A stretch of 42,142 nt of DNA from Candidatus Limnocylindrales bacterium (GCA_035300625.1 DATGVG010000056.1:1-42142); one strand, 5' to 3'; shown: positions 27,670 to 34,382, numbered from the stretch's first letter. The notes: generated from the letters alone by a model not told the origin. Translations and numbers: made by a program.

Positions 27670-28976
27670 CCCAAACCGCGGGCGCCCCGCTCACGCGGCG
27701 CCTGGACGATCTCTATCGCTTCGAGCGGTCCGGGATGCGACTGGGCCTGGAGGGGATCGAGCGCCTGATGGCCATGGGCGGCCGCCCCGACCTCGCCTTT
27801 CCCTCGGTCCTGATCGGGGGAACCAATGGCAAGGGGTCCACCGCGGCGCACCTGGCCTCGATTTTCCGCGCCGCCGGGCTCAAGACGGGCCTCTACACCT
27901 CGCCGCACCTGATCCGCTTCAACGAGCGGATCCGCGTGGACGGCGCCGAGATCGGAGACGCCGAGCTGGAAGAGCTGCTCGAGCGCTGGTGGCCGCGGTT
28001 CGAGGAGGAGCGGCCGTCGTTCTTCGAGGCCGCGACCGCGCTGGCCTTTGACCACTTCGCCGCCGCCAAGCTGGACATGGCCGTGGTCGAGGTTGGGCTG
28101 GGCGGCCGCCTGGACGCGACCAACGTGCTCGTCCCGCGCGCGTCCGTCATCACCACCATTTCCAGCGATCACACCGAAATCCTGGGCAAGACCTTGCGTA
28201 GGATCGCCGCCGAGAAGGCCGGCATCGTGAAGCCGGGGGGAACGCTGGTCCTGGGCGTGCGCTCTCCCGATCCTCGCGCCGAGATCATGGAGAGGGCGCG
28301 GGAGGTCGGAGCGCGCGTCCTCCTCCTGGGACGGGACGCACGCTATACGCCGAAGAGCGTGACGCTCGCGGGAACGGCGTTCCGGCTTTCGACCGCGCAA
28401 TTCACGGGGAACGTGACGACGCCGCTCCTGGGCGCGCACCAGGCGCGGAATGCGGCCCTCGCCGCGCTCGCGGCCGAGACGGCCCTCGAGCCGCGCCCGC
28501 GCGGCGAGGTGGCGCGCGCCATCGCCCTTGGGATCGCCGCGACCCGGTGGCCCGCCCGCGCCGAGGTGATCGGCGGCGACCCGCCGGTGCTCCTGGACGT
28601 GGCCCACAATGTCGAAGGCGCCCGGGCGCTGGCCAAGACGGTGGAGGCGCTCTTTCCGCGCAGGAAGGTGGCGCTGGTGATCGCCCTCTCCCAGGACAAG
28701 TCGCACGCGGCGATCCTGAGCGCGCTGGCTCCCGTGACCAGCCGGTTCACGCTGACCGAATTCGGAGGGGAGCGGGCCACTCCCGCCGCGGAGCTCGCGC
28801 GGGCGGCGCCCGCCCGGCATTTGGCGAGCGAGGCGGTGCCGTCGGCGGCCGAGGCGGTGCGCGGCGCCGTCCTCTGGGCGCGGCGGGAAGGGGGAGTCGT
28901 GGTGGTGACCGGCTCCTTCTACCTCATGCCGGAGGCGCTCGCCGCCCTCGGGGGCGAGGTGCCCCGTGCGATCTAG
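27666..28976 (+). CDS. folC: Bifunctional folylpolyglutamate synthase / dihydrofolate synthase
   Basis: Mur-ligase P-loop GGTNGKGST, YTSPHL, and the DHTEILG-type motif. ATGA overlap with accD; accD-folC adjacency also occurs in E. coli. Confidence 0.9.
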   Translation: MTQTAGAPLTRRLDDLYRFERSGMRLGLEGIERLMAMGGRPDLAFPSVLIGGTNGKGSTAAHLASIFRAAGLKTGLYTSPHLIRFNERIRVDGAEIGDAELEELLERWWPRFEEERPSFFEAATALAFDHFAAAKLDMAVVEVGLGGRLDATNVLVPRASVITTISSDHTEILGKTLRRIAAEKAGIVKPGGTLVLGVRSPDPRAEIMERAREVGARVLLLGRDARYTPKSVTLAGTAFRLSTAQFTGNVTTPLLGAHQARNAALAALAAETALEPRPRGEVARAIALGIAATRWPARAEVIGGDPPVLLDVAHNVEGARALAKTVEALFPRRKVALVIALSQDKSHAAILSALAPVTSRFTLTEFGGERATPAAELARAAPARHLASEAVPSAAEAVRGAVLWARREGGVVVVTGSFYLMPEALAALGGEVPRAI

Positions 28977-31900
28977 GGCGCGCCCGGCGGCGCCCCCGGC
29001 GGCCCCTCTCGCCGCGCTGGTTCTGCTCCTTCTCCCCGCCGCCGCATCCGCCCAGGCGGACGTCGAGTCCTACCGGCTACGGGCCGACCGGCTGGAGGGA
29101 TCCTTGAACGGCGCGGAAAACGTCTACACCGCGATCCGCCCCATCCTGACCCACGGCACGACCACGGTGACCGGCGATTCCGCGCTGGTCTATCGGACCC
29201 GCGAGTTCGTGTTCTTTCGCGGCAACGTGAAGATCGTGGACAGCACCACCACCATGTGGGGGGATGAAGCCTCCTACGATCGGAAAGACCGCCGCGCCAC
29301 CCTCCGCGGCAACGTGCGGATCGAGGAGGGGGGGAGCAGGATCACGGGGCGCGAGGCCACCTTCTACCGCGACAAGAACCTCTCCGTGATCACCGGCTCG
29401 CCGCGCATGGTGGACTCGACGCGCACCTTGACGGCGGACCGGATCGAGTACGACCGGAACAACGACGTGGTCCTGGCGCTGGGCCACGTGGACGCGTCGG
29501 ACCAGGCCGACAGCACCCGGGTCCTGGCGGGCCGTGTCCGCTACGACCGGCGCTCCAACTACGCGTGGGCGGACATGTCGCCGCGCCTGGACCTGACGGA
29601 AGCGGGCGGGGTCGTGACCCATGTCTCCGGCGACTCGCTCGAGTTCGACCGTGAGAAGGACCAGGTCTTCGCGCGCGGCAACGTGCGCGTGGTGCGCGAG
29701 AAGCTCCAGGCGACCGCCGGACGCGCCGCTTTCTTCCGGCGCGAGAACCGGGCCATCCTGGTCGAGTCGCCGCGGGCGTGGGACCCCGAGGGCTCGGCGA
29801 GCGGGGACACGCTGGAGATCCGCCTCGCGCAGAATCGGGTCTCCTCCATGCAGGCCCGTCCCCACGCAAAGGTGGCTTACGAGGCCCATGCCGACTCGAC
29901 CCGGGCCGAGCGCACCACCGCGACGGGCGACACGATCACGCTGTTTCTGGAGAACGACGCGGCGCGGCGCGCCCTGATCGTGGGGCACGCGAGCTCGTTC
30001 TACTGGCCCTCCAGCGCCGACAGCGCCCGGGGCGGACGGAACGAATCGACCGGGGACACCATCATTGTGGAGTTCGACAAGGGGAAGCCCGCCCATGCCA
30101 CGGTTCTCGGGAGCGCCGTCGGCACCTATTACATGGCGGCGGAGGGGGACACGGCCGCCGCCGCGAAGCGGGAGCGGATCGTCTACCGCGGGCGCGAGAT
30201 CGGCTACGACCTTCGCAAAAACTCCGTCGACGTCCGGGGCTCAGCCGATGTCGGCTACCGGGAAATGCGCTTGAGGGCCGACCGGGTGCACTTCGACGCC
30301 GACACCGAGAAGATGCGGGCGGAGGGAAGGCCGGTGCTGGAGGACGCCGGCGACCGGATCGTGGGCCAGACCATGACCTACGATCTCAGGATCCGGCGCG
30401 GAGCGGTCATGGCCGGGCGGACGAAGTACGAGCAGGGGTACGTGACCGGGGACCGCGTGCTGCGCGTCTCGGAGAACATTCTCGACGTCAAGAACGGCAC
30501 CTACACGACCTGCGATCTTCCCGACCCGCATTATCACTTCGGCGCGGGCAAGATGAGGATTCTCCTCCACGACAAGGCCGTCGCGAAGCCGGTCGTGTTC
30601 TACATCAAGCACATCCCCGTGATGGCGATCCCGTTCTACGTGTTTCCGATCAATTCGGGCCGCCATTCGGGATTCCAGCTCCCCCAGTTCGAATTCGGAT
30701 CGTCGTCGGCCGCCGGCAAGTTCGTGCGGAACGTCGGCTATTACTGGGCGATCAACGACCACCTGGACGCGACGGGCTGGGGCGACTACTACCAGGACGC
30801 CAGCTGGATCGCGCACGGCCAGATGCGCTACCACAAGCGCTACGCATACCAGGGGGACTTCAGCGGGTCCTTCCAGAACCTGTTCGGCACCCCGCAGACC
30901 GGGGGACACTCGACGCAGCGGTGGGACCTCTCGGGCCGGCACTATCAGACGCTGGGGCTGAACTCGCAGCTGACCGCGGACCTGAATCTCACCAACTCGC
31001 CCACCTACCTGAGCGATCCCTCGATCGGCCGGTCGGTCCTCTACCGGACGGAGCGGATCCTCTCGTCCAACGTCGGCTACTCGAAGAACTGGAGCGCCGC
31101 CCACCTCGACGCGGGATTCGTCCGGAATCACTACCTGAGTCCCGACCCGGGCGGGCTGCGCCTCTTGCAGCAGCTCCCGTCGGTCCGGTTCCGGCTGAGC
31201 GCCCGCCCGATCGGTCGCGCGGACCGCCCCGGCGTGCCCGGACGGCTCCGCGGACTCGCCTCCGTGGTGTACAGCTACGACACGCAGCTCTTGAGCCAGC
31301 GGAACGTGACCGTCAACCGGTACGCTACGGTGGCCGACCAGCGGGACTCGATCACGGACGTGCGCACCGGCATGGTCCACAGTCTGACGATCACCGACAA
31401 CCGGAGCATCCTGACCGCGATCCGGGTCAGCCCCACGTTCAGCGCCAGGGGCATTTACTATTCGCGCGACGACTCCGGCGCCCGGAATCGCTTCGGCGGC
31501 AACTGGAATGCCGGGATCGGCGCGAACACCCAGATCTTCGGCACCATGACCCATTCGATCGGCCCGCTCCGGGCCCTGCGCCACGTCATCACTCCCTCGG
31601 TGTCGTTTTCCTACCAGCCGCGGATCCGGAATCTCACGTTCGTCGACACCACGGGATTCGCCCGCTCCCGCTTCGCCGGGATCCCGAGCATCTCGCTCAC
31701 GTCCGCCGAGTATCGGTTCCTGAGCTTTGGACTCCGGAACGACATCCACGTGAAGTGGGGCAGCCGCGAGCATCCGAAGACCATCAACAACCTGATCTCG
31801 TTCGGGAGCGGGGGGTCCTACGATCTGCTCGCGAAGCGGCAGGGAAAGCGTCCTCTCTCCGACATTTCCAGCTCGCTCACGCTCCGGCCCTTGGACCGGA

Positions 31901-32457
31901 GCGAATTCGACTTCGGCTTCGTGCACGACCCGTACACGGGGACCTTGAAGACGCTCACGGCGTCCACCGGGCTCGCGCTCACGGGCGTTTCCAAGGCGGC
32001 GTCCGATTCCACGCTCCAGATGTCGGACGAGCCCGGGGAGGCGGCGGTGCGGGAGGGGAATTATCTGAGGCCGGAGGGGCTCACCTCCACCAGCCTCCCC
32101 TGGCAGGTGGGGCTGTCGATCGGCTATCGGGGCAACCGCGACGTGTTTCCCGGCAGCGCGACCTTCGGCCGGTGGTCCTCGCAGGCGACGATGAACGGGA
32201 CCCTTGGGCTGAATCTCTCGCGCGGATGGCGCTTCGACTACAAAGCCCAGTACGAGATGCACACACGCACCCTGGTCTCGCAGTACTTCACCGTGAAGCG
32301 CGAGCTCCACTGCTGGGAGGCGCAATTCACGCGAAGTATTTCCGGCGACATCAAGGAGTACTACTTCAAGATCAACGTGAAGCTTCTGCCGGAGGTCTAC
32401 TACGAGCAAGGGAGTCGGGGACTCCGCGGCTTCGGCAGTGTGAACAATCTCTACTGA
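28966..32457 (+). CDS. Large LptD/OstA-like outer-membrane protein (extended N-terminal OstA-like repeats plus C-terminal beta-barrel)
   Basis: GTG start and signal peptide ...LLLLPAAASAQA. The first ~450 aa consist of repeated OstA-like beta-jellyroll strands (GNVKIVD..., GNVRIEE..., ADRIEYD, GNVRVV...). They are followed by TTCDLPDPHYHF and a long Y/G/N-rich alternating barrel region. Confidence 0.6.
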   Translation: MRSRARPAAPPAAPLAALVLLLLPAAASAQADVESYRLRADRLEGSLNGAENVYTAIRPILTHGTTTVTGDSALVYRTREFVFFRGNVKIVDSTTTMWGDEASYDRKDRRATLRGNVRIEEGGSRITGREATFYRDKNLSVITGSPRMVDSTRTLTADRIEYDRNNDVVLALGHVDASDQADSTRVLAGRVRYDRRSNYAWADMSPRLDLTEAGGVVTHVSGDSLEFDREKDQVFARGNVRVVREKLQATAGRAAFFRRENRAILVESPRAWDPEGSASGDTLEIRLAQNRVSSMQARPHAKVAYEAHADSTRAERTTATGDTITLFLENDAARRALIVGHASSFYWPSSADSARGGRNESTGDTIIVEFDKGKPAHATVLGSAVGTYYMAAEGDTAAAAKRERIVYRGREIGYDLRKNSVDVRGSADVGYREMRLRADRVHFDADTEKMRAEGRPVLEDAGDRIVGQTMTYDLRIRRGAVMAGRTKYEQGYVTGDRVLRVSENILDVKNGTYTTCDLPDPHYHFGAGKMRILLHDKAVAKPVVFYIKHIPVMAIPFYVFPINSGRHSGFQLPQFEFGSSSAAGKFVRNVGYYWAINDHLDATGWGDYYQDASWIAHGQMRYHKRYAYQGDFSGSFQNLFGTPQTGGHSTQRWDLSGRHYQTLGLNSQLTADLNLTNSPTYLSDPSIGRSVLYRTERILSSNVGYSKNWSAAHLDAGFVRNHYLSPDPGGLRLLQQLPSVRFRLSARPIGRADRPGVPGRLRGLASVVYSYDTQLLSQRNVTVNRYATVADQRDSITDVRTGMVHSLTITDNRSILTAIRVSPTFSARGIYYSRDDSGARNRFGGNWNAGIGANTQIFGTMTHSIGPLRALRHVITPSVSFSYQPRIRNLTFVDTTGFARSRFAGIPSISLTSAEYRFLSFGLRNDIHVKWGSREHPKTINNLISFGSGGSYDLLAKRQGKRPLSDISSSLTLRPLDRSEFDFGFVHDPYTGTLKTLTASTGLALTGVSKAASDSTLQMSDEPGEAAVREGNYLRPEGLTSTSLPWQVGLSIGYRGNRDVFPGSATFGRWSSQATMNGTLGLNLSRGWRFDYKAQYEMHTRTLVSQYFTVKRELHCWEAQFTRSISGDIKEYYFKINVKLLPEVYYEQGSRGLRGFGSVNNLY

Positions 32458-32488
32458 CGAATTTGGCGCGTCCGTGGGCGAAATATAT

Positions 32489-32517
32489 TTGACACCCCCT
32501 GGGGTGCGGCGTAACGT
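32489..32517 (+). promoter_or_regulatory. Candidate sigma70-type promoter for the HU gene
   Basis: TTGACA (32489-32494), 17 nt, then TAACGT (32512-32517), preceded by an AT-rich AAATATAT tract. It lies about 33 nt upstream of the HU start. Confidence 0.45.
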
Positions 32518-32549
32518 GGCGCCCACACCGCGAAAGGAGGTGAGGCAAG

Positions 32550-32840
32550 GTGAACAAGACGGAACTCGTCGCATACGTCGCCAAGAAGGCTTCGCTCTCC
32601 GCGCGCCAGGCGCGCGCAGTCGTGGACACCATCTTTTCCCCGGGCAAGGAGGGTCTGATCGCCTCCGCGCTCCTTTCGGGCAAGAAGGTCCAGATCACCG
32701 GATTCGGAACCTTCGAGACCCGGAAGCGGAAAGCACGCGAAGGTCGCAATCCTCAGACGGGCGAGCGCATCAAGATCGCCGCGTCCCGCTTCCCGGCGTT
32801 CCACGCCGGAAAGGCCCTTCGCGAACGGATCAAGAAGTAG
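32550..32840 (+). CDS. hup: HU family DNA-binding protein
   Basis: GTG start 7 nt after AAAGGAGGTGA. Motifs MNKTELV..., GFGTFETRKRKAREGRNPQTGERIKI and FHAGKALR are hallmarks of HU/IHF. Confidence 0.9.
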   Translation: MNKTELVAYVAKKASLSARQARAVVDTIFSPGKEGLIASALLSGKKVQITGFGTFETRKRKAREGRNPQTGERIKIAASRFPAFHAGKALRERIKK

Positions 32841-32996: not shown

Positions 32997-33043
32997 TTTT
33001 TCGGTATCCGGCCGACCATTGACGCAAGGGGAGGTGATTCGCG

Positions 33044-34375
33044 CTGCTTCGCTACCGCTACCTGCTCTTCCTTATTGTCGGGCTTCTATTTGCGGCCTCG
33101 TCGCTCCAGGGCAAGGGCTCCCAGACGGACATCCTCATCCAGAGCACCAACGATGTCTTCAACGAGCTCGCGCCCTGTGGCTGACACGCTCACCCGCTAG
33201 GCGGCCTCGCCCGGAGGGCGAGCCAACTCAAGGTAGGCAGCCTCAAGTTCGCGAACCACTTCATCGTGGATTCCGGCGATTTCTTCGGCGTCACGGGGGA
33301 GCAGGACTCGCTGAAGTCGGCCTTCATGGTCCAGGCCATGGACCGTCTGGGCTACAGCGTCGCGACCATCGGCGAGCGGGAGCTCTCGTTCGGCCAGGCT
33401 TTCCTGATCGACACCTTCAAGAAGACCAAGATCGACCTGGTCTCGGCCAACGTCGTCTTCGCCGATACGAAGAAGCCTCTGGTGCGGCCGTACGTCATTC
33501 GGAGGGTGGGCACGGTGAGGGTGGCGTTCACGGGGTTCCTGGGCAAGGAAATGCCGCTGAAGCGCCACGCGGGCGACAAGGAATTGACGGTTCTGGAAGC
33601 CGCCGACGTCGCCAAGACCCTGATCCCCGAGCTCCGGAAGAAGGCCGACGTCGTGGTCGTCCTGTCGCACCTGGGCCTGACCGACAGCCAGAAGCTGACC
33701 ATCGAGGTCCCGGGAATCGACGTCATGGTGTTCGGACATCTGGTCGGCCTCTCGAAGGAAGTGGTGCAGACCCAGGGCGTGATCAACGTCCGGGGCGGGG
33801 AGCGCGGCCAGTACATCCCCTCCATCCACCTCGTGGTGGAGGACGGCAAGATCGCGTCCTATGACGGGGACGTGGTGACGCTGGATGACAAGATCCCGGC
33901 GGACGATTCCATGAACCACCTGGTGGACAACTTCCAGGACGAGCTGAACACCCGCTTCCAGAAGCAGAGTGAGCAGGCGGCCAACCAGGAGGCGCGGCAG
34001 ACCCAGGTCGCGCTCTCCGCCGACCATTACATGGGCGAGAAGAACTGCCGCCGCTGCCACGAGGCCGAATATCAGATGTACACCAGCCAGAAGCACGCGC
34101 ATGCCTTCGCGACCCTCACGAAGAACCAGCGCGATTCCACGCCCGAGTGCCTTCCCTGCCACGTCGTGGGCATGGGACAGGCGGGCGGCTTCGTCTCCAA
34201 GGAGAGCACGCCCGATCTCGTCAACGTGCAGTGCGAGAACTGCCACGGGATGGGGACGATGCACGGAAGCGGCCACGTGGTCGGTCCGGAAGTCTGCATC
34301 ACATGCCACACGGCGTCGCAGGACCCGACCTTCAATTTCGACGAGAAGCTCCCGAAGATCGTCCACTGGCAGTAG
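33044..34375 (+). CDS. Secreted fusion of a degenerate 5'-nucleotidase/UshA-like domain to a tetraheme cytochrome c, with one in-frame TGA at 33182-33184 (candidate selenocysteine, otherwise a disrupted gene)
   Basis: The conservative ORF is 33266-34375. It carries four CxxCH motifs: CRRCH 34046, CLPCH 34148, CENCH 34232 and CITCH 34295. The same frame upstream encodes LLRYRYLLFLIVGLLFAASSLQG (a signal peptide) and TDILIQSTNDVFNELAPCG, then TGA, then HAHPLGGLARRASQL...FIVDSGDFFG. This reads as one continuous UshA-like N-terminus. The proposed start is CTG 33044, 9 nt after GGAGG. Confidence 0.55.
33203..33224 (+). promoter_or_regulatory. Candidate SECIS-like hairpin downstream of the in-frame TGA
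   Basis: GG-C-CTCGCCC / GGA / GGGCGAG-CC gives a 7-bp stem, then a 1-nt bulge and 2 more bp, with a G-containing apical loop. The loop begins about 31 nt after the U of the UGA. Confidence 0.35.
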
Positions 34376-34382
34376 GCACCCC

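Follow-up and report, generated by a model that had tools for sequence, protein, structure and literature searches.

A UshA-like PCGU selenoprotein that joins a degenerate 5'-nucleotidase fold to a tetraheme cytochrome module, and its putative role in thiol/selenol redox chemistry

We find that a 42,142-nucleotide stretch of DNA from a Candidatus Limnocylindrales bacterium (GCA_035300625.1, DATGVG010000056.1:1-42142; hereafter the window) contains, at positions 33,044 to 34,375, a gene that profile matching assigns to the catalogued NF041198 family of UshA-like selenoproteins. Its product combines a 5'-nucleotidase-like domain, in which the metal site is degenerate and a Cys-Gly-selenocysteine (Sec) motif has been added, with a C-terminal cytochrome module of four c-type hemes. 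Our preferred interpretation, to which we attach a probability of roughly 0.6, is that this exported PCGU selenoprotein acts as a heme-coupled thiol/selenol oxidoreductase on a nucleotidase fold. When TGA is translated as Sec, the gene forms a single unbroken frame of 443 residues followed by a TAG stop codon (34376-34378); this TGA-containing frame, and each of the motifs quoted in an initial annotation of the locus, could be located as described.

The full-length protein matches the NCBIfam profile NF041198 ('UshA_like_PCGU, UshA-like (seleno)protein') with 280 bits and E 3e-83 (equivalog cut-off 275), and the 519 positions of this profile are matched in one frame, with positions 5-264 corresponding to the nucleotidase-like part and positions 345-518 to the heme part. 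Because the profile spans both domains, the fusion of nucleotidase-like and tetraheme parts is not new, and represents the standard, already known architecture of NF041198. The PCGU or PCGC motif of 75 relatives lines up with A-P-C-G-U-H at residues 43-48 of the window's protein, within the loop that follows the first beta strand, with the TGA (codon 47) at 33182-33184. The family was listed in 2008 as 'COG0737 UshA-like' with the motif CxU, the Global Ocean Sampling (GOS) data containing 76 sequences of the Sec form and 92 of the Cys form (PMC2398784), and it appears again in reviews of 2022 and 2026 (PMC9312934, PMC13188914), while none of these three papers assigns a function to it. In comparison with this 'UshA-like, CxU' family of Zhang and Gladyshev, the window's protein agrees in its P-C-G-U motif and in its division into two parts, the family has members with Sec and members with Cys, and nothing essential differs; the window's member starts at a CTG codon.

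Several observations identify UGA codon 47 as a genuine selenocysteine codon that is aided by a downstream hairpin, namely the presence of Sec machinery, the covariation of the hairpin, and the retention of TGA in most relatives with Cys in others. Encoded in the window's genome, which measures 2.54 Mb at 84% completeness, are selA (550 bits), selB (331 bits for the N-terminal part, 368 bits summed along the frame), selD (363 bits) and a tRNA-Sec with the anticodon TCA. The selD gene (contig C182:5179-6105, + strand) reads through an in-frame TGA of its own, so that the selenophosphate synthetase of this organism is, as translated, itself a selenoprotein. Among the N-terminal-domain matches listed from an NF041198 search of 201 genomes of the phylum, most contain exactly one in-frame TGA, and the in-frame alignment of translated orthologues holds on both sides of this codon, at which some relatives encode Cys. 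The hairpin, which resembles a selenocysteine insertion sequence (SECIS), begins 19 nt 3' of the TGA. Across 63 distinct Sec-gene sequences, 84.7% of its cells are paired, compared with 73.6% in shuffles, and double-sided changes number 58 against 18.9 expected, a count reached by 0 of 500 shuffles; as a control, pairing is at most 50% once the 3' partners are slid. Compensating changes often fall at synonymous third positions (e.g. CTC/GCG versus CTG/GCC). Furthermore, stem pairing is 7.6/9 in Sec genes and 4.5/9 in Cys genes, despite their common amino-acid motif. The minimum free energy of the single sequence following the TGA is unremarkable (z-score -1.0) because the sequence is GC-rich. 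Sec machinery, a SECIS hairpin and Cys orthologues, by which bacterial selenoproteins are recognised, are all present here. In the literature we found no paper joining Eisenbacteria and selenocysteine.

That the N-terminal domain belongs to the 5'-nucleotidase family, as initially proposed, is agreed upon by phmmer searches of the PDB (CpdB 3jyf, E 7e-18; 5'-nucleotidase 2z1a, E 9e-14) and by structure prediction. An AlphaFold2 model built on the 75 full-length relatives has a mean predicted local distance difference test score (pLDDT) of 92 and a predicted template modelling score (pTM) of 0.84, and Foldseek aligns this model over ~300-340 columns to CD73, Thermus 2z1a, Escherichia coli UshA and CpdB (E 1e-24 to 1e-21), with a query-based TM-score (TMq) of ~0.56 over ~310 columns for CD73, 2z1a and UshA, which places it within the 5'-nucleotidase fold. 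The protein shares with UshA, CpdB and CD73 the fold of its N-terminal domain, the succession of motifs I-V, a helix that begins with GGxAR and the long helix that follows the domain, whereas the site-1 ligands and His/Asp dyad of those enzymes are replaced here, Asn116 has become Glu, and a Cys-Gly-Sec loop has been added. In the model this C-G-U lies in the loop linking strand 28-35 to helix 55-68, directly after motif I, which bears out its initially proposed location behind the first altered motif.

With reference to UshA, the extent of degeneration differs between the two halves of the metal site (Table 1). The initial annotation had described the metal ligands as replaced, in the motifs found at residues 35-41 (TNDVFNE), 76-82 (DSGDFFG) and 110-116 (GERELSF). 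This is correct for the equivalents of UshA H43, N116, H117, D120 and Q254, but as a description of the whole site it is too strong, because the site-2 half (D79, E111, H209, H232) persists: D37, D79, H209 and H232 of the window's protein are kept, the two His having gone unmentioned, and all four site-2 positions hold residues that are able to bind metal. These four residues are jointly kept in 37 of the 75 relatives, the window's protein among them, and relatives that do not have the full set have lost at least two of the four, such that they tend to go together. At the position equivalent to UshA H43, His occurs in 8/75 relatives, and the UshA residues N116, H117, D120 and Q254 are absent from the commonest residues at the equivalent positions. 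The match to Pfam Metallophos reaches only 13 bits, short of the cut-off of 21.5, and PF02872, the C-terminal substrate-binding domain of 5'-nucleotidases, gives no match at E up to 1. A competent phosphoesterase has the complete dimetal set and the catalytic H117/D120 dyad, and because site 1 and this dyad are lost here, the residues present exclude a conventional phosphoesterase. An internal contrast to this degenerate domain is provided by a canonical 5'-nucleotidase encoded elsewhere in the same genome (contig C41:13101-13967, - strand), in which NDLHSH, DAGD, GNHD, THIG and GGHSH are intact and the C-terminal domain is normal.

The thiosulfohydrolase SoxB (TIGR04486) belongs to the same fold superfamily and is the second-best NCBIfam match of the protein (E 1e-24), and sulfur, selenium or arsenic chemistry had been raised as a speculation on account of this kinship. 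We set this candidate aside as unsupported, given that the 86 bits obtained with the SoxB model are far below its cut-off of 550, that the intact dimanganese site required by SoxB is absent, and that the gene is surrounded by envelope and housekeeping genes, with no sulfur, selenium or arsenic genes (sox, ars or similar) among the neighbours examined.

The C-terminal module, initially recognised from its four CxxCH motifs as c554-like, matches Pfam PF13435 (Cytochrome_C554) with E 2e-15 and 57.9 bits (gathering threshold 20.8) and the c554 structure 1bvb with E 5e-9, hemes 1-3 being aligned and His351 lying opposite His27 of c554; an additional resemblance to NrfB is supported by no match. Its score, its four CxxCH sites and its c554-type pattern of distal His are those of the cytochrome c554 family. 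As in cytochrome c554 of Nitrosomonas europaea (PDB 1bvb/1ft5), which likewise has four CxxCH sites and a distal ligand of the His27 type, there are only three conserved distal histidines (His351, His407, His441) for four hemes, implying that one heme is without a distal His. On the basis of this count and of the c554 alignment, the unpartnered heme is likely to be heme 2, matching the five-coordinate heme of c554. However, c554 is a free electron carrier of 211 residues, whereas the present module comprises ~115 residues, is fused to another domain and diverges after heme 3. Foldseek alignment lengths of ~300-338 columns suggest that the helix formed by residues 288-323 is the interdomain helix of 5'-nucleotidases, and because the helix is read in this way, the heme module would stand at the place where true 5'-nucleotidases have their nucleotide-binding C-terminal domain.

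Among the 75 relatives, the invariant residues are G46, U/C47, G53 and G78 together with the four CxxCH sites and the histidines H351 and H407, and nearly invariant are C45 (72/75), G54, R57, R58, N136, D226 and H441. Because C-G-U/C and the heme ligands are conserved while the former metal ligands vary, the alignment points to a functional core composed of the Cys-x-Sec pair and the hemes, and to a redox rather than a hydrolase role. Under our preferred interpretation, which assumes the simplest mechanism, Cys45-Gly-Sec47 would cycle between the selenol/thiol and selenenylsulfide states in a loop beside the former active site, and the four c-type hemes would carry single electrons between the Cys/Sec pair and redox partners in the periplasm. 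Heme 2 may be the likeliest to face the Cys/Sec centre, because it is without a conserved distal histidine. Candidate substrates would include peroxide, protein thiols, and an S-S or S-Se compound of low molecular weight.

The coupling of a one-electron centre to a dithiol couple is familiar from ferredoxin:thioredoxin reductase, where CPC and CHC motifs lie beside a 4Fe-4S cluster, and from flavocytochrome c sulfide dehydrogenase. The analogy with these enzymes is mechanistic only, in that a close Cys-x-Cys/Sec couple is fed by one-electron carriers; their sequences and folds are unrelated to those of the present protein, and their cofactors are iron-sulfur (FeS) clusters or flavin adenine dinucleotide (FAD), whereas here they are c-type hemes. 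A CxU selenoprotein form of ferredoxin:thioredoxin reductase has been listed (PMC13188914).

Three points weigh against an oxidoreductase of this kind. Firstly, given the joint retention of site 2 in 37/75 relatives, the window's protein included, one metal ion may still bind and take part in the chemistry. Secondly, the neighbouring genes (LptD, HU, a LolA-like protein, and genes of type II secretion systems (T2SS) and type IV pili (T4P)) indicate no redox substrate. Thirdly, the family is known from sequence and prediction, and the proximity of the Cys/Sec centre to a heme is an assumption.

Several alternative hypotheses may explain the same features. In the best placed of these, which we nonetheless regard as unlikely, Sec47 or Cys45 would serve as the sixth ligand of heme 2 or as a covalent modifier, creating a His/Sec(Cys)-ligated catalytic heme such as those of SoxAX and TsdA, at which inorganic sulfur compounds (thiosulfate/tetrathionate) would be oxidised or reduced in place of selenenylsulfide chemistry. 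This would account for the presence of three distal His (H351, H407, H441) for four hemes, for the alignment of heme 2 with the five-coordinate heme of c554, and for the invariance of U/C47 and near-invariance of C45, and the pTM of 0.84 suggests a fixed arrangement of the domains. Yet the corresponding heme of c554 itself stays five-coordinate and takes no external ligand, sox, tsd and other sulfur-metabolism genes are absent nearby, and a CxU/CxC pair taken as a unit more usually forms a dithiol/selenenylsulfide couple.

Somewhat less probable again is the hypothesis that a single metal is bound by D79, E111, H209 and H232, either as a metal-selenolate site together with Cys45/Sec47 that is wired to the hemes, or as the centre of a residual mono-metal hydrolase. 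The coherent behaviour of the four site-2 positions, which occur together in 37/75 relatives including the window's protein and elsewhere tend to vanish together, is in keeping with such a site, as is the position of the CGU loop directly after motif I, where site-1 ligands formerly stood. However, a metal cannot be the core of the function of the family, because half of its members have lost the site-2 residues and kept CxU/CxC and the hemes, and hydrolysis of phosphoesters in particular would require the absent catalytic His/Asp dyad; the Metallophos score is 13 bits (cut-off 21.5).

A broader and rather speculative synthesis, to which we give little weight, is that the family constitutes a hitherto unrecognised type of periplasmic enzyme, whose Cys-x-Sec selenenylsulfide centre is driven by a wire of four hemes, possibly helped by the remaining half of the dimetal site, and which serves as an envelope thiol oxidase or in peroxide detoxification in Eisenbacteria and allied phyla (mostly without DsbB and VKOR), with a LolA-like partner and a link to LptD maturation. 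The thiol-oxidase component may also be considered separately, as a specific-substrate version of the heme-coupled oxidoreductase: an envelope protein-thiol oxidase or isomerase would replace the DsbB/VKOR systems, and electrons from envelope Cys (e.g. those of LptD) would pass to the hemes. In 100 genomes of the phylum with a completeness of 90% or more, the number with a match is 0 for DsbB, 14 for VKOR and 29 for a DsbA-like thioredoxin, and the window's genome, at 84% completeness, gave no match to any of these families. This scarcity of DsbB and VKOR, set beside a UshA-like family matched in 120/121 high-quality genomes of the phylum, is in favour of such a role, as is the position of LptD, which lies directly upstream in 29/66 related loci (30 with that of the window) and has two Cys in the window. 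The argument is nevertheless circumstantial, and we consider this role improbable, since many bacteria have neither DsbB nor VKOR, the members from Gammaproteobacteria and Acidobacteriota do not show the LptD gene order, the synteny is limited to lineages that are related and may reflect no more than common descent, and the window's genome is only 84% complete. Finally, the reading of the TGA as a real stop, which would leave either a pseudogene or a 46-codon leader followed by a 369-aa cytochrome from GTG 33266, agrees with public gene calls for relatives, which start after the TGA and yield ~349-386 aa, but we reject it as very improbable, because the 46 upstream codons are conserved in frame across phyla, this codon specifies Cys in relatives, the genome has the Sec machinery, the SECIS hairpin covaries, and a 369-aa product would be without the signal peptide needed for heme c attachment.

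Regarding the boundaries of the gene, the start at 33044 given in the initial annotation stands, on the basis of a clade-conserved CTG located after GGAGG. The upstream frame is closed by an in-frame TGA at 33035, the first codon considered as a start thereafter is CTG 33044, and no ATG, GTG or TTG was found between this TGA and the core of the signal peptide. Of the 15 sequences from the window's clade, the window counted, 13 have CTG at a distance of 9-10 nt 3' of GGAGG, and GGAGGTGAT is kept 5' of the start among clade relatives, while orthologues from other clades have ATG, GTG or TTG at the equivalent position. The comparison thus supports a conserved CTG as the start codon used by this gene. 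The predicted signal peptide suggests that the protein is secreted (periplasmic). Public gene calls for close relatives, most of them from Candidatus Eisenbacteria, begin 3' of the TGA, and the public records of relatives of the segment 33266-34375 are labelled 'multiheme c-type cytochrome' or 'cyclic-nucleotide phosphodiesterase'. The public calls for this family routinely omit the signal peptide and the Cys-Gly-Sec centre, with the result that annotations are wrong across whole phyla.

Table 1 Features of the selenoprotein gene and its surroundings in the window, and equivalents of the UshA metal-site residues
Feature	Position	Strand	Basis or remark
Complete coding sequence, UshA-like PCGU tetraheme selenoprotein	33044..34378	+	443 aa plus TAG stop (444 codons); translation with TGA=U; NF041198, 280 bits against cut-off 275
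Shine-Dalgarno GGAGG	33030..33034	+	Read directly from sequence
CTG start codon	33044..33046	+	Clade conservation and upstream frame closure
Predicted signal peptide, ~residues 1-23	33044..33112	+	Basic RYRY, hydrophobic core, SSLQG; helix 2-20 in AlphaFold2 model
5'-nucleotidase/metallophosphoesterase-fold domain, residues ~26-287, degenerate dimetal site	33119..33904	+	phmmer against PDB, Foldseek, ligand mapping
Cys45-Gly46-Sec47 (TGT GGC TGA), family CxU motif	33176..33184	+	Conservation among 75 relatives; TGA kept in most orthologues
SECIS-like hairpin, 9-bp stem, GGA loop (GGA/GGC across sequences)	33204..33224	+	Covariation; within codons for G-L-A-R-R-A-S
Long interdomain helix (predicted), residues 288-323	33905..34012	+	DSSP on AlphaFold2 model
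Cytochrome c554-like tetraheme module, residues 327-443	34022..34372	+	PF13435, 1bvb alignment, invariant columns
CxxCH, residues 335-339	34046-34060	+	Translation
CxxCH, residues 369-373	34148-34162	+	Translation
CxxCH, residues 397-401	34232-34246	+	Translation
CxxCH, residues 418-422	34295-34309	+	Translation
Downstream secreted partner gene, 345 aa	34383..35420	+	Starts 5 nt after selenoprotein stop; homologue downstream in related loci
LptD-like gene (1163 aa, two Cys only), then HU, upstream of selenoprotein gene	28966-32840		Conserved order
UshA D41, site 1			D37 here, kept
UshA H43, site 1			F39 here
UshA D84, bridging			D79 here, kept
UshA N116, site 2			E111 here
UshA H117, catalytic			R112 here
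UshA D120, catalytic dyad			S115 here
UshA H217, site 2			H209 here, kept
UshA H252, site 2			H232 here, kept
UshA Q254, site 1			V234 here

In the window the selenoprotein gene is preceded by accD, folC, the LptD-like gene and HU, and it is followed by the gene for a secreted protein and then by GspE- and GspF-type genes. The two Cys of the window's LptD are situated at the domain junction and near the C-terminus. We compared this arrangement with 79 related loci encoding the gene in other genomes, 66 of which have enough upstream DNA. Where LptD adjoins the upstream side, HU stands between LptD and the gene in 24 loci (25 with that of the window), and a homologue of the partner gene lies directly 3' of the gene in 27-28 related loci. 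The partner gene is probably co-transcribed with the selenoprotein gene. The AlphaFold2 model of its product (pLDDT 72) is weakly similar to YmcC/LolA-superfamily proteins, which are open beta-barrels (E 7e-5 to 8e-4, TM-score 0.25-0.4), and Pfam and NCBIfam scans give no match; the protein also has an acidic low-complexity insert. The LptD/HU/partner order is confined to Eisenbacteria, Krumholzibacteriota, bins labelled Fibrobacteraceae and allied bins, and members from Acidobacteriota, Latescibacterota, Nitrospirota, Myxococcales, Gammaproteobacteria and Deltaproteobacteria do not show it. This LptD-HU-gene-LolA-like order is a new observation. We discounted a functional link with the downstream T2SS/T4P genes, as adjacency to GspE is kept only in the closest clade.

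The family is widely distributed. A match to NF041198 at E <= 1e-20 is found in 198 of the 201 genomes of the phylum (paralogues counted), with 59/201 above the curated cut-off, and the family occurs additionally in each of the six groups named above as having other gene orders. Its matches in nearly all genomes of the phylum searched, and its spread through other phyla, would give biochemical characterisation a wide reach. Such work could start from the half of the metal site that is retained, from heme 2 as a likely five-coordinate heme, and from the conservation of the LptD-HU-gene-LolA-like order.

The window's genome also encodes two paralogues of ~930-1000 aa (contigs C107:10833-12149, - strand, and C235:3139-4440, + strand). 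The copy on C107, which was scanned, scores 219 bits against NF041198, under the cut-off. Both paralogues join a degenerate M61-peptidase-like N-terminal region to a UshA-like domain, which contains the motif N-C-G-C-K, and to the tetraheme module seen in the selenoprotein.

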